NCBI GenBank assembly: GCA_905187695.1
Contig: CAJJIY010000003.1
Span: 4,812 to 68,811, forward strand
Reading direction: 5' to 3'
Origin: an uncultured Eubacteriales bacterium
GTDB lineage: Bacteria > Bacillota > Clostridia > Oscillospirales > CAG-272
Length of the DNA: 64,000 nucleotides
This document shows positions 46,727 to 63,947 of this stretch, in pieces. The notes beneath the pieces were generated by a model, which saw only the letters and a program-made list of their open reading frames with translations, was not told the origin of the DNA and made no database searches. The stretch's first letter is position 1; the number at the start of each line of letters is the position of its first letter. The position numbers and the translations under genes are program-made.

Positions 46727-47572
46727 ATGGCAGAGAAGCCGAAAATGGAAGAGATCAAAGAATATATCGGGAGCAACGGATGTTCCGATACCGAACGGAT
46801 GATCGAGGCTCATTTTTTGGGTCTCAGGTCCGCCCCGTCTCTTTCTCTTGAGGACAGCCCGAAAACGTGCGTCTGCCCTCTTCCTTTAACCATCCCGGAA
46901 GCGTTTTCAAATGAAAAAATCCTTATAAACCGTACCGATACGGTAAATTGGGGACTTTTTGATGTATTGGTCGGTTCGGTGCGGAACGAGGCGCAATACC
47001 GTCATTGCCTTGCGGAAAACTATTATTATGTCCCCGCGAAATATCTGACAGACCGGCAGGATCCGATCCGTTATGTAGCCATGTATCATGCGTTGCGTTT
47101 CGGAGATCCCGGCATTCGTTATTACGGCAAAGTGATCCGGCGGGAATGCGTGCCGCGCCGGCAGGTGCCGTTTCCGGCCGCCCGTGCCAACGGCGAGGAG
47201 CCTTATGAAGTTTTCACGGTAAAAAGTTGGGAAGAACTGCCCCAAAAAATAAAGCCCTGCGGTCAGTCGGTATATGAGCCGCGGTTCACCAATCTTTTCT
47301 TGCTTCTGAATGTGCCGCGCACTTATGCACTTTTTATGATCAGAAGTGCGGAACAGTATGAAATTTTAAAGGAGTTGCGCCGCGCGGCAGCCAATCCGGG
47401 ACAGCTCGACGGTATCCGCCCGGTCGGCGCACGGCTGTGGGCACGGACCGCAGGCGGGTTCTTTGAACTGACGGATCGGACAGGGCGACCGCTTTGCCGT
47501 GTTTCGCTGGCGGAATTCCGCCGTGCCCCCGCCCGCGTCCTGCGCCGGATCTTTTCGACCCTTTCCGAATGA
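46727..47572 (+). CDS. Hypothetical protein
   Basis: 281 aa ORF with an AAGGAGG RBS and host-like G+C. No recognisable motifs. Confidence 0.5.
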   Translation: MAEKPKMEEIKEYIGSNGCSDTERMIEAHFLGLRSAPSLSLEDSPKTCVCPLPLTIPEAFSNEKILINRTDTVNWGLFDVLVGSVRNEAQYRHCLAENYYYVPAKYLTDRQDPIRYVAMYHALRFGDPGIRYYGKVIRRECVPRRQVPFPAARANGEEPYEVFTVKSWEELPQKIKPCGQSVYEPRFTNLFLLLNVPRTYALFMIRSAEQYEILKELRRAAANPGQLDGIRPVGARLWARTAGGFFELTDRTGRPLCRVSLAEFRRAPARVLRRIFSTLSE

Positions 47573-47594
47573 AAAAAGCCGCCGGGAAAGCGGA

Positions 47595-47612
47595 CTTCTC
47601 ATAAGGATGTTA
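47595..47612. repeat. Left terminal inverted repeat of the element
   Basis: CTTCTCATAAGGATGTTA, the exact reverse complement of 63902-63919. Preceded by GA at 47593-47594. Confidence 0.8.
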
Positions 47613-47827
47613 GAAAATATCCAATGAAAAGCCGATTGAGAGTGCCTAACGAAGAAAATCCATCATGGACAGTAGGTCTGTGATGGATTTTCTTTTTTCA
47701 TCCTTCAAAATTTGCGTCGGGGGAAACAAAGAATAGGCGCGGTGAAAAAATATTTTTATTTTTGAAAAAAGTCTGGACTTCTGCAACCTTCTGTGGTATT
47801 GTTGTGTGCTAACAGGAGGTACAGCCT

Positions 47828-48091
47828 ATGAAAAGCATTATTAACGAACTGTGGCACGGTAACATCATTCCGCAAGAGGACAGCCGAACAAATTCCAATG
47901 AGATGAAGCAACTCCTCAACTATATGGCAAGACATCACGAGGATCTCGAAAAGAGCTTCACGGACAATCAGAAGGAAGCATTCGAAAAGTTCCACGATTG
48001 CTTCAGCGAGTACATGGGCCTCGCTGAAGCTGCCATATTCGAATATGCCTTCAAATTCGGAATTCAAATTGTCGTAAACGCTCTATTGTAA
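47828..48091 (+). CDS. Small helical protein of unknown function (resembles small ORFs common on clostridial mobile elements)
   Basis: 87 aa with an AGGAGG RBS. MKSIINELWHGNIIPQED..; followed by a terminator. Confidence 0.5.
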   Translation: MKSIINELWHGNIIPQEDSRTNSNEMKQLLNYMARHHEDLEKSFTDNQKEAFEKFHDCFSEYMGLAEAAIFEYAFKFGIQIVVNALL

Positions 48092-48097
48092 AGCAAA

Positions 48098-48137
48098 AGC
48101 AAACCAACACGGATTACATAGTCTGTGTTGGCTTGCT
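48098..48137. terminator. Bidirectional terminator between convergent genes
   Basis: 13-bp arms agcaaaccaacac/gtgttggcttgct (12/13 paired), followed by TTTT. Confidence 0.6.
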
Positions 48138-48156
48138 TTTCTAATTTATACTTTGA

Positions 48157-61788: not shown

Positions 61789-62052
61789 ATGACAGAAGAA
61801 AAAAAGACAAATCAACAGGAAATCGACACTGGCTTCCGCACGCCCGATGGCGATTATCAGAGAAGCATTGACAAGCACTTGACTCGTCTTTCCTTAGTGA
61901 AGGTTACGGAAAACGAAACATCCCTCACACGCAAATACAGCGTGGGCAGTATGAATTATACCGTACGTTCAGTATTTCCTCGCGCGGATAAGCCGACCAT
62001 CGAGGATAGCCTCAAGCATCTTATGACTCGGGAGGTAGAAAATGTCTCGTAA
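61789..62052 (+). CDS. Small protein, possibly TnpW-like
   Basis: 87 aa ORF with an AGGAAGG RBS, located between the relaxase and the serine recombinase, as in Tn4451-type elements. The sequence-level assignment is unverified. Confidence 0.35.
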   Translation: MTEEKKTNQQEIDTGFRTPDGDYQRSIDKHLTRLSLVKVTENETSLTRKYSVGSMNYTVRSVFPRADKPTIEDSLKHLMTREVENVS

Positions 62053-62165
62053 GTTAACAAAAAGTTATCTGGACTTTCAAACCCAGTTGGAGTATACTTG
62101 GATTGCGGAAATCTGTATCCGCACCCAACTCTCAATCGGTTTGACTTAATACAAGGAGGTCACAC

Positions 62166-63830
62166 ATGAAGTCAAACCAATATGAAAGCAAAATAACCGC
62201 GCTGTACTGCCGTCTTTCTCAAGAGGATGAGCTGAAGGGCGACAGCAACAGTATTCAGAATCAGAGAGCCATTCTCAAAAAATACGCCAAGGATAACGGC
62301 TTTGAGAACATTGAGGTATTCGTTGATGACGGATATTCGGGTGTCAGCTTTAACCGTCCGGACTTTCAGCGTCTGCTTGAAATGATGGAGCAAGGCAAGG
62401 TGGCAACGCTGATCACCAAAGATTTATCCCGTCTTGGCAGAAACTATATCGAGGTCGGCCAATACACCGAAATGCTGTTCCCCCGTTGGGATGTTCGGTA
62501 TATTGCTACCAACGATAATTATGATTCTCTTTATTGCGAGGGCAACGAGCTTGCACCGTTTAAGAACCTTTTTAACGAGTGGTACGCACGAGATACCAGT
62601 AAGAAGATACGTGCCGTGGTCAAGGCTAAAGCCGAGCGTGGCGAGCGTGTGGGCACGGTAACGCCATACGGATATCGAAAGGATCCCGACGTAAAAGGCC
62701 ATCTGCTCGTGAACGAGGATACAGCTCCGGTCGTCCGATTGATATTCTCCCTCTGCGCTGAAGGAAAAGGACCAAAGGTTATTGCCAATATCCTTCGTGA
62801 GAAGCAAATACTCAAGCCCACGGCATACCGATACCAGACCACCGGCAAGTATGGAGCTACCACCGATACGGAAGACATCTACGGCTGGAACGATAGGACG
62901 GTAGCAGGGATCCTTGATAACGAGATATACCTCGGACACACGATCAACTGCCGTACTACCGTGGTATCCTACAAAGACAAGCGGAAAAAGGATGTCCCCG
63001 AAAGCGAATGGTATCGCTTCGAGAATACTCACGAAGCCATTATTGACAAGGTTACTTGGGATATCGTTCGTAAGGTCAGGGAGAGCAAGCGTAGGCGAAC
63101 CAATATGGGCGAGGTGGACAAATACAGCGGTCTGCTGTTCTGCGCCGATTGCGGTTCAAAGCTCTACTTCGTAAGAGGAACGACTATTAAACCAGAAGCG
63201 TATAACTTTATCTGTAGCCGCTACCGAAAACACATGGGTGAAGAGCTGTGTACGCCTCACACGATTCGAGAAAAAGCACTTGATGAGATCGTGCTGGAAG
63301 AAATACGCAGCGTGACCTATTACTCAAGAGCGAACACCGCACAGTTCGTGGACTTTATCCAAAAGAAAAGCTCAGCCGAATCGCGCAGAGAGTTGAATGC
63401 AAAAACGGCAGAGCTAAGTAAATTAGAAAAGCGAAACGGTGAGCTGAATGCGCTATTCAAAAGGCTGTATGAGGACAACGTTCTTGGCAAGGTCACAAAC
63501 GAGCAGTTCCGTATGCTGTCCGAGGGATACAATGAGGAACAGCGGCGGATTCAGGAAGAAATCCCAAAGCTGAGAAAGACAATAGAAGAGCTCAAGGCTT
63601 CTGCTACTAACGTAGACCGCTTCCTTGATATAGCTCGCAAGTACACAGATATGAAGGAGCTCACACCCGAAATTCTTAGAACATTCATCAGCAAGATCGT
63701 TATCCACGAGCGAAGCCGAAAGCACGTCAAGGATGCTGAACAGGACATCGACATCTACTTCACCCACATCGGGAACCTTAACCGCTTCTGCTCTGACGGA
63801 AAAGCCGTCCCAACTGAAATAACCGCCTAA
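62166..63830 (+). CDS. Large serine recombinase (TnpX/TndX-like)
   Basis: 554 aa. The catalytic region [22 protein letters not shown] carries the Ser. Resolvase domain plus recombinase domain plus zinc ribbon [16 protein letters not shown] and a coiled-coil tail. Confidence 0.9.
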
Positions 63831-63846
63831 ATCCAAGCAACAGAAA

Positions 63847-63875
63847 AGGACAGACGACCTTAAATCGTCTGTCCT
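63847..63875 (+). terminator. Hairpin downstream of the recombinase gene
   Basis: 11-bp stem aggacagacga/tcgtctgtcct with a 7-nt loop. The T-tract is weak. Confidence 0.5.
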
Positions 63876-63901
63876 TGTCTGAAAAGTACGCCTTTACGCT
63901 A

Positions 63902-63919
63902 TAACATCCTTATGAGAAG
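63902..63919. repeat. Right terminal inverted repeat of the element
   Basis: TAACATCCTTATGAGAAG, the exact reverse complement of 47595-47612. Followed by GA at 63920-63921. Confidence 0.8.
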
Positions 63920-63947
63920 GAGCGTAAACCGGCGGCTTTTTTGTGGG

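Follow-up and report, generated by a model that had tools for sequence, protein, structure and literature searches.

In the 64,000-nucleotide stretch of DNA analysed here (the window, from contig CAJJIY010000003.1), which belongs to an uncultured Clostridia/Eubacteriales lineage of the human gut represented by a metagenome-assembled genome (MAG), a discrete mobile element lies exactly within the loop of a bidirectional terminator of the host, as real empty sites prove. The element occupies positions 47589-63925 and very probably is an integrative mobilisable element that was integrated by its own TnpX/TndX-like recombinase of the DUF4368-bearing type, through recombination at an AA dinucleotide between a 50-bp attachment site on the element (attP) and the terminator as the host attachment site (attB), the copy in the window carrying surface-glycan genes as cargo. 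Elements of this kind, integrative and mobilisable with a DUF4368 recombinase, are known; what is apparently new and undescribed is a well-defined target architecture, and the interest of the finding is greater at the level of the family than for this single island.

A preliminary description, made from the sequence alone, had proposed a Tn4451-like mobilisable transposon of low G+C content, bounded by perfect 18-bp inverted repeats and inserted between two inverted host sequences. The repeats are exact, CTTCTCATAAGGATGTTA at 47595-47612 being the reverse complement of 63902-63919, and as chance would produce only about 0.002 perfect inverted 18-mer pairs in 18 kb of sequence (our own estimate) and the same 18-mer ends relatives elsewhere, they are real. 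The low G+C content was also confirmed, with values of 0.39-0.48 inside the element and of 0.55-0.62 in most 1-kb bins of the left-hand host DNA, which drops to 0.49-0.50 in the 2 kb nearest to the element. The host flanks AAAAAAGCCGCCGG (47572-47585) and CCGGCGGCTTTTTT (63929-63942) are indeed mutually inverted, and they are bordered, as had been proposed, by two convergent genes, one encoding a protein of 281 amino acids (aa) with its stop codon at 47572 and the other a P-type cation ATPase with its 3' end at 63948.

The uninterrupted terminator, for which a search of related genomes had been suggested, was found in six assemblies. A lookup of the exact 281-aa host protein returned 22 contigs, with and without the element, of which ten places were displayed; at six of these the gene is followed after 36 bases by the convergent ATPase gene, with no element in between. 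Samples that contain the element include ERZ916494 and ERR13987267. All six read AAAAAAGCCGCCGG-GAAA-CCGGCGGCTTTTTT, i.e. ...GCCGCCGG-GAAA-CCGGCGGC..., the target in its element-free state being GCCGCCGGGAAACCGGCGGC. Across the flanking DNA present on each contig, at most 10 kb per side, the empty-site assemblies are 99.2-99.6% identical to the left flank of the window and the right flank of a filled contig; the left-flank alignment stops at window position 47588, and on the empty contig the right one begins at the base that follows immediately. The empty site, located between the two convergent 3' ends, folds at -31.1 kcal/mol into an A6 tract, an 8-bp stem, a GAAA loop, the complementary stem and a T6 tract, and by this architecture it is a bidirectional intrinsic (Rho-independent) terminator, its termination activity being predicted. 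A simple terminator scan of the real empty site did not report a terminator, probably because the stem extends into the A/T tracts, and folding was used instead. The bidirectional terminator that had been rebuilt from the flanks in the preliminary description is therefore real, while its loop is the 4-nt GAAA and not the 16-nt loop proposed.

The only sequence common to the left junction (attL), the right junction (attR) and attB is AA(A), and there is no longer target duplication. Since nothing but GAAA is present in the empty sites, each GA dinucleotide adjoining a repeat is element DNA, and the comparison likewise assigns to the element the six bases between repeat and junction, AGCGGA on the left and GAGCGT on the right. 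The crossover dinucleotide is AA, at 47587-47588 and 63926-63927, six bases outside each 18-bp repeat. This 6/6 register is the sole one with a two-base core that agrees in all seven paired insertions, i.e. those for which both ends were available (the window, L013, L015, L041/L036, L072/L057, L111 and L113); a 7/5 register was rejected, as it fits five of the seven and fails for L015 and L072/L057. The integrated element thus defined has a length of 16,337 bp and its circle, with one AA core, of 16,339 bp, and the predicted attP comprises 50 bp (18 + 6 + AA + 6 + 18, with AA at the exact centre), the predicted circular joint reading TAACATCCTTATGAGAAGGAGCGTAAAGCGGACTTCTCATAAGGATGTTA. For annotation, the lesson is that the obvious terminal repeats are not the junction and that the true ends lie six bases farther out.

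The position of the crossover also bears on the mechanism of the preliminary description, in which a Tn4451/Tn4453-family transposon had undergone a TnpX-type crossover at the GA directly flanking the repeats. GA is indeed present at 47593-47594 and 63920-63921, but not as the junction; the GA model predicts an empty site of GAAAGCG-GA-GCGTAAA with the 16-nt loop GAAAGCGGAGCGTAAA, which was never seen, and in other insertions the pair beside the left repeat is GG or AA. That the catalytic domain of the recombinase is 61% identical to that of TnpX, and that targets of the related TndX always contain a central GA (PMC4430133), speaks for a GA crossover, but the markers of Tn4451-type elements, TnpV, TnpW and Mob_Pre, are all absent from the element, and the GA model is exceedingly improbable, the empty sites having refuted it. 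What stands is an element with inverted attP-type arms at its ends that encodes a large serine recombinase and a relaxase module; the preliminary description was right on the kind of machine and wrong on the family and the crossover.

The recombinase contains the catalytic domain PF00239 (2.5e-24), of which Ser18 (YCRLS) aligns with Ser15 of TnpX (alignment with PDB 2MHC), followed by PF07508 (6e-23), the zinc ribbon PF13408 (1.5e-13) and the C-terminal DUF4368 (PF14287, 1.7e-22, residues 473-538). Alignment with TnpX and TndX, as had been advised, gave an E-value of 2.8e-41 and 70 of 115 identical residues (61%) between its first 120 residues and the TnpX catalytic domain (PDB 2MHC, a comparison limited to TnpX residues 1-120), and 38.8% identity to annotated TndX over 91% of the protein; over its full length, it is 43% identical to the recombinase of the Tn4451-type element on pD610-HI2, an IncHI2 plasmid of Klebsiella. 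On these similarities, which fall short of demonstrating orthology with TnpX, the recombinase is a genuine relative of TnpX and TndX and belongs to the same DUF4368-bearing clade.

Nevertheless, the element works like Tn4451 without being a member of the Tn4451 family, as argued by the lack of TnpV, TnpW and Mob_Pre and by a crossover at AA instead of GA. The Tn4451-type comparator on pD610-HI2 has TnpV, TnpW and a Mob_Pre relaxase (PF01076); PF01076 was found in the comparator only, whereas the element uses a PF03432 relaxase together with MobC/NikA. No open reading frame (ORF) of the element matched PF14198 or PF14202. BLASTP gave no alignment of the 87-aa protein encoded directly upstream of the recombinase gene with the TnpW of the comparator, nor of the DUF6809 protein with its TnpV, and even at E = 10 neither had a Pfam match to these families, so that both assignments are ruled out. 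Tn4451/Tn4453 share with the element a small size, the lack of conjugation functions, the DUF4368 large serine recombinase for excision and integration, a relaxase of their own and a small ORF just upstream of the recombinase gene. They differ in the crossover (GA, compared with AA, or AT in a subgroup of the present elements), in the relaxase (TnpZ/Mob_Pre, PF01076, compared with a MobA/VirD2-type protein, PF03432, with MobC/NikA), in TnpV, TnpW and TnpY, which the element lacks, and in the S24 repressor, the DUF6809 protein, the AAA_25 ATPase found in relatives, and the terminator-loop targets of the present elements. TnpX has a length of 707 aa, compared with 554 aa for the recombinase of the element.

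TndX of Tn5397 belongs to the same recombinase clade and has the same four Pfam domains, but it is encoded in a Tn916-like conjugative element, and its targets have the GA core, a preferred site in C. difficile lying inside a Fic-domain coding sequence (PMC4430133), whereas the present elements use AA in intergenic terminator loops. TndX alone has been reported to be sufficient for integration and excision (PMC4430133), and thus a separate directionality factor may not be needed by the recombinase of the element either. Beside this comparison, it was observed that the Tn4451-type module used as comparator (TnpV, Mob_Pre, TnpW and DUF4368 recombinase; L119, K. pneumoniae pD610-HI2, NZ_MG288680.1, 203502-217073) carries aac(6')-Ie/aph(2'')-Ia and occurs on IncHI2 plasmids of Enterobacteriaceae, a case of a mobilisable transposon of Gram-positive type in Gram-negative plasmids.

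Insertion at a terminator is no peculiarity of the window's locus; it holds across the relatives examined, a point that the preliminary description had missed. At every right junction examined, the repeat is followed by GAGCG(T/C), AA or AT, six to nine GC-rich bases and a T-run, and the left junctions mirror this arrangement. Excluding the window's own, 90 of 95 distinct half-sites show a GC-rich stem and then a T-run starting 13-22 bases outward, compared with a T-run at 10.7% of random positions in the same loci, where half-sites were counted as distinct flanks and the loci were drawn from many related MAGs and metagenomes. Counting outward, T makes up 86-95% of the bases at positions 18-20 and 82% at position 21; relative to the core, these are positions +10 to +13. 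Each of the seven attB sites that were reconstructed can be folded into a perfect hairpin with an A-tract, a stem, a loop of 3-4 nt, the second stem arm and a T-tract, and z-scores of -4.7 to -7.5 against shuffled sequences were obtained for the five sites tested. Of the five sites with a register worked out, three have the core at the loop centre and two have it at most 1.5 nt away. A weight matrix built from the half-sites of other genomes ranked the true site 9th of 57,355 positions on the reconstructed empty chromosome, and 4th of 8,902 among AA/TT cores. Taken together, the flanks look like terminator halves in every relative examined, and wherever both ends were recovered the target is a terminator hairpin. 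In one subgroup (L021-L028, L054, L057/L072 and L080), which includes a recombinase 96% identical to that of the window, AT replaces AA as the core on both ends.

A large-scale study by Durrant et al. 2022 (PMC10083194) has described a clade of multi-targeting large serine recombinases that is enriched in DUF4368 and includes TndX-like enzymes, multi-targeting being defined as one cluster of at least 90% identity adjoining more than three unrelated target genes. The present recombinases are multi-targeting in this sense, as near-identical ones lie at many unrelated loci. The multi-targeting DUF4368 recombinases of that study, e.g. Cp36, also have a similar target motif with a TT core and T/A-rich ends; there, however, this example motif was read as relaxed specificity (PMC10083194), whereas the targets described here resolve into intrinsic terminators of the bidirectional type, the core being located in the loop or beside it. 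Neither the text nor the supplements of that study contain the words terminator, hairpin or palindrome, and the main text of the SPLASH preprint (10.1101/2024.01.18.576133), which linked DUF4368 to integrative mobilisable elements in metagenomes, makes no mention of terminators. Thus, the terminator-loop rule appears to be undescribed in the open-access papers searched.

As one alternative, the recombinase may have little intrinsic preference and the terminator pattern may reflect survivorship, insertions into genes having been purged and harmless intergenic ones left. The similar motif read as relaxed specificity in the earlier study and the near absence of a sequence consensus in the stem region agree with this, but survivorship would spread insertions over all intergenic DNA instead of placing them within 1.5 nt of the loop centre at the five registered sites, would not yield 82-95% T at the fixed positions +10 to +13, and would not let a motif from foreign genomes rank the true site 9th of 57,355; it is therefore unlikely. 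Alternatively, the recombinase might recognise a DNA structure, a cruciform or hairpin extruded at the terminator palindrome, instead of a duplex motif, and the stems are in fact perfectly complementary in all seven paired sites despite their differing sequences, while the motif is weak in the stem region. This is very unlikely, as serine recombinases make 2-bp staggered cuts in dimer-bound duplex DNA, whereas a cruciform has a loop of single-stranded DNA; the attP arms and the T-tract signal, which is strong and fixed in position, resemble ordinary half-site recognition, and palindromy arises automatically if both half-sites fit one motif and such sites are mostly terminators.

Other mobile elements are known to home to terminators or palindromes, namely group IIC introns, which insert after intrinsic terminators, and IS1397/ISKpn1 and IS110-family elements, which use repetitive extragenic palindromic (REP) sequences and palindromic units as targets. 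All of these share with the present elements a repeated, structured and abundant landing site that is free of genes and hence safe. They differ in their machinery, which is a retrohoming ribozyme with reverse transcriptase or a DDE/DEDD transposase and not a serine recombinase acting on duplex att sites, and they insert after or beside the hairpin, whereas the present elements insert in or beside the loop.

According to the mechanism proposed here, attP on the circular form of the element (18-bp arm, GAGCGT, AA, AGCGGA, inverted arm) would recombine with the terminator attB (A6, 8-bp stem, GAAA loop, stem, T6), the crossover being AA at the centre of the loop. From the biochemistry of serine integrases, it would be expected that recombinase dimers bind the 50-bp attP and the palindromic terminator, that both strands are cleaved at the core, and that the ends are rejoined after rotation. 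The target rule would comprise a core dinucleotide matching that of the element itself (AA here and in most relatives, AT in the subgroup), GC-rich DNA on each side of the core, and T at +10 to +13 on one side with A mirrored on the other. That the core needs only to match between the partners would explain why AT is found in both attP and the target of the subgroup. Terminators, being palindromes with mirrored A/T tracts, offer two equivalent half-sites, and the presence of many such palindromic sites per genome, none of them within genes, would explain the occurrence of one recombinase at many loci. After excision, the circle would be nicked at an origin of transfer (oriT) by the MobA/VirD2-type relaxase with MobC/NikA and would be transferred through the conjugation apparatus (mating pore) of another, helper element, while the S24/LexA-type repressor may silence the module until it is cleaved (GESM...K motif). 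The hairpins inside both ends (47652-47694 and 63841-63881) might replace the terminator that is split by the insertion.

Several observations weigh against this account. The circular joint, for which a sequence search had been suggested, was found in none of the collections searched: a gapped-pattern search for the attP junction gave zero matches in viral contigs, the one match in JGI metagenomes is an artefact, and among 36 contigs of relatives there is no right end running into a left end, so that excision of the window copy is hypothetical. Furthermore, the exact recombinase of the window with the glycan cargo was seen at this single site only, and in this copy the AAA_25 gene is deleted and an insertion sequence (IS) has been inserted; the copy may therefore be impaired or immobile and be inherited vertically. 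An oriT was not identified with confidence in the element, which offers candidate hairpins only (about 60391-60412, and 59913-60008). On the side of the target, T-runs do not all begin at the same position but differ by a few bases from site to site, and little sequence consensus is seen in the stems; moreover, a palindromic AT core fits awkwardly with directional serine recombination, as it should abolish orientation control. Finally, the open-access corpus in which no serine recombinase or integrative mobilisable element homing to terminator loops was found is a limited one.

The JGI match (L029, OHBU01012508.1, 1536-1583) consists of a perfect 48-bp palindrome that lies inside a restriction-modification specificity gene, at the extreme end of a contig of 1.6 kb, and most likely is an assembly snap-back artefact.

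Part of these points would be accounted for if the window copy were a decayed, immobile remnant of one ancestral integration that has since been inherited vertically, which is compatible with the proposed account of its arrival. The deleted AAA_25 gene, the inserted IS1182, the existence of a deletion variant (L003), the exact recombinase at this site only and the missing attP joint all point in this direction, whereas the genes for the recombinase, the relaxase, MobC and the 87-aa protein are intact, both 18-bp arms are intact and perfect, and between carriers and non-carriers the flanking DNA diverges by less than 1%. An immobile remnant is thus a possibility to be taken seriously, although the balance is somewhat against it. 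The deletion variant (ENA ERZ28564618, scaffold_1206) has at the same site a 4.7-kb version of the element that is 99.7-99.9% identical and lacks 11.6 kb (window 48993-60612), from inside the dehydrogenase gene to inside mobC; about five bases at its deletion junction (L003 7535-7539) align to both sides, and it is either a real deletion derivative or a mis-join in the metagenome assembly.

At the level of the family, it seems rather plausible, on a modest balance of the evidence, that in gut Clostridia a lineage of DUF4368 recombinases, itself widespread, has in the course of its evolution adopted the signature of a bidirectional intrinsic terminator (an A-tract, a palindrome with AA in the loop and a T-tract) as attB. 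If so, any host would contain tens to hundreds of harmless landing sites, and terminator loops would be a class of safe harbours that occurs in every genome, many times per genome, and where no gene is disrupted. This would give a mechanistic explanation for the multi-targeting so far read as relaxed specificity, and it would account for the spread of the family and for the part it plays in moving phage-defence and cell-surface cargo. In that case the elements, parked at the ends of genes, would carry defence, restriction-modification and surface-glycan cassettes in modular fashion, with hairpins at their own ends restoring termination. For genome engineering, where multi-targeting DUF4368 recombinases are under development as integration tools, a defined palindromic target rule, in place of loose AT-rich DNA, would allow landing sites to be predicted and designed in a testable manner.

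Homologues of the recombinase number more than 8,000 at E <= 1e-20, and most of the best 120 listed are 92-96% identical. Relatives with near-identical recombinases (93-96%) share a backbone with 82-94% nucleotide identity that comprises the genes for the DUF6809 protein, the S24 repressor, the AAA_25 ATPase, MobC, the relaxase, an 82-87-aa ORF and the recombinase, while their cargo differs, being an MmeI-type restriction-modification enzyme or GmrSD with a WYL protein. They adjoin many unrelated host genes, and even exact recombinases occur at different flanks, at least nine for P0002, at least four for P0016, and three each for P0014 and P0050, all of them 94-96% identical to the recombinase of the window. 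In species-representative genomes, the 18-mer end was found at 78 loci, four of which are chance matches in unrelated phyla; the remaining loci, about 74, lie in MAGs of gut Clostridia, Oscillospiraceae or Acutalibacteraceae from humans and ruminants. The commonest class of exact 18-mer ends (inner sequence ctgtcggggttt, spacer tagcct) is a different subfamily, in which the sequence inside the repeat is unrelated to the window element and one end per element has the exact 18-mer, and thus the 18-bp arm is common to several otherwise different elements. A search of plasmids with the backbone DNA gave a single 107-bp match and nothing useful.

One MAG (JAZKYO01, Eubacteriales, SGB_4760) contains six right ends of one subfamily (L049, L060, L069, L078, L103 and L104), each adjoining a different terminator half, the matching left ends being without the exact 18-mer; this suggests transposon-like multiplication within one genome. 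Furthermore, two insertions with the same recombinase P0014 (L111 and L113) differ in the left 6-nt spacer (GCGGGG and AGGCAA) while the repeats and the right spacer are identical, so that the spacer evidently is not read strictly, or ends have been exchanged between elements.

The gene list of the preliminary description (repressor, MobC, relaxase, small ORF and large serine recombinase) was correct, and the features of the element and its borders are compiled in the table.

Table. Features of the element and of the adjoining host DNA; positions refer to the window, and a dot stands where no strand applies.
Feature	Position	Strand	Evidence and remarks
Host gene, 281 aa, no Pfam family	46727..47572	+	ORF; 3' end abuts target terminator; NCBI: hypothetical protein, Clostridia bacterium MAG
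Host half of attL: A6 tract, left stem GCCGCCGG, loop base G, crossover AA (47587-47588)	47572..47588	.	Empty sites; end of flank alignment
Left end of element = right half of attP: spacer AGCGGA and 18-bp arm CTTCTCATAAGGATGTTA	47589..47612	+	
Hairpin just inside left end: 19-nt arms, 5-nt loop, then TTTTTC	47652..47694	+	Inverted repeat
DUF6809 small protein, 87 aa	47828..48091	+	PF20648, E = 1.1e-20; also in L013, L014, L016, L111-L114
Cargo: nine-gene surface-glycan cassette	48157..55809	-	Pfam
Two ORFs without an assigned role, encoding 115 aa (weak helix-turn-helix match) and 270 aa	56115..57288	+	Weak helix-turn-helix matches only
IS1182-family IS, passenger	57341..58932	-	Transposase 57363-58796; NF033551 IS1182, E = 5e-122
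LexA/S24-type repressor, 206 aa as called in relatives	59188..59808	+	PF00717, 1e-17; TIGR00498 lexA, 4.7e-27, with a score below the model cut-off
Large inverted repeat AAGGGTAGGTATCTGTTGC ... GCAACAGATGCCTACCCTT between repressor gene and helicase-gene remnant	59913..60008	.	
Remnant of AAA_25/DnaB_C-type ATPase gene	60112..60268	+	Corresponds to L014 7111-8121; about 850 bp missing
MobC/NikA relaxase accessory protein	60470..60790	+	PF21983, 9e-14; PF05713, 1e-12
Relaxase, MobA/VirD2-like nuclease domain	60751..61737	+	PF03432, E = 1.5e-40; weak matches to MOBP-type NCBIfam models
Conserved 87-aa protein directly upstream of recombinase, TnpW-like position	61789..62052	+	ORF
Large serine recombinase, 554 aa: Resolvase, Recombinase, Zn-ribbon, DUF4368	62166..63830	+	Pfam
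Hairpin past recombinase stop codon	63841..63881	.	Inverted repeat; minus strand scans as terminator facing incoming ATPase transcript
Right end of element = left half of attP: 18-bp arm TAACATCCTTATGAGAAG and spacer GAGCGT	63902..63925	+	
Host half of attR: crossover AA (63926-63927), loop base A, right stem CCGGCGGC, T6 tract	63926..63942	.	Empty sites
Convergent host P-type cation ATPase gene, 3' end	63948..64000	-	872 aa in full-length contigs; L001 10883-13501, Pfam E1-E2_ATPase

As the element encodes its own recombinase, relaxase and MobC and no coupling or mating-pore protein (a scan of all element ORFs gave no match of the VirD4/TraG, VirB4 or FtsK type), it is classified as integrative and mobilisable and not as conjugative. 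A prophage was ruled out, there being no structural or packaging genes and PHROGs matches only to an integrase, a repressor and a relaxase-like protein.

Of the backbone genes, that for the DUF6809 protein is a recurrent one of the family. The repressor gene has about 91-94% nucleotide identity to those of relatives, and its product has, besides the GESM...K motif, a VACGEG motif located where LexA is cleaved. The large inverted repeat that follows, which has its counterpart in relatives as a reverse self-match, is a candidate origin or operator. The AAA_25/DnaB_C-type ATPase gene is intact in most relatives (the L014 protein matches PF13481 at 3e-23), and a 109-aa ORF at 60140-60469 probably is not a real gene, as it overlaps the deleted ATPase region and has no family match. 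The GC-rich hairpin at about 60391-60412, just upstream of mobC, is a candidate oriT. An ORF of 82-87 aa is found directly upstream of the recombinase gene in most relatives whose contig covers this position; the 87-aa protein of the element had no family match in profile searches and, from its location, is a candidate directionality or accessory factor.

The glycan cassette encodes a UDP-sugar dehydrogenase, a UDP-GlcNAc 2-epimerase, two GT4 glycosyltransferases, a HAD hydrolase, a WbmS-like deacetylase, a radical SAM enzyme, a second HAD hydrolase and an Smr-domain protein. It is the part of the element with the lowest G+C content (0.385-0.424), and it is absent from the relatives, which have other cargo. 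The IS1182-family element has 16-bp terminal inverted repeats (TCAGTCTGTCGAAAAA / TTTTTCGACAGTCTGA); it lies between the gene for the 270-aa protein and the repressor gene and directly adjoins a short hairpin (57320-57340). As a 1.6-kb insertion inside the element with 16-bp repeats of its own, it was ruled out as the mobilising agent.

At the left end, about 59 bp (47587-47645) are conserved in relatives and the DNA farther inward is not. From its structure, the hairpin just inside this end may serve as a substitute terminator or as an insulator that keeps out transcripts of the 281-aa host gene. On the minus strand of attL (47579-47593), the spacer GCGG pairs with the left stem of the host to form a new 5-bp hairpin followed by CTTTTTT, a possible terminator for leftward transcription out of the element. 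Elsewhere, tandem repeats were found nowhere in the window, and an extreme AT skew was observed at 26001-27000 (+0.33) and at 32001-33000 (-0.48), both in coding DNA, one ORF encoding BacA undecaprenyl-diphosphatase, a membrane protein, and the other a protein of 713 aa with no Pfam match.

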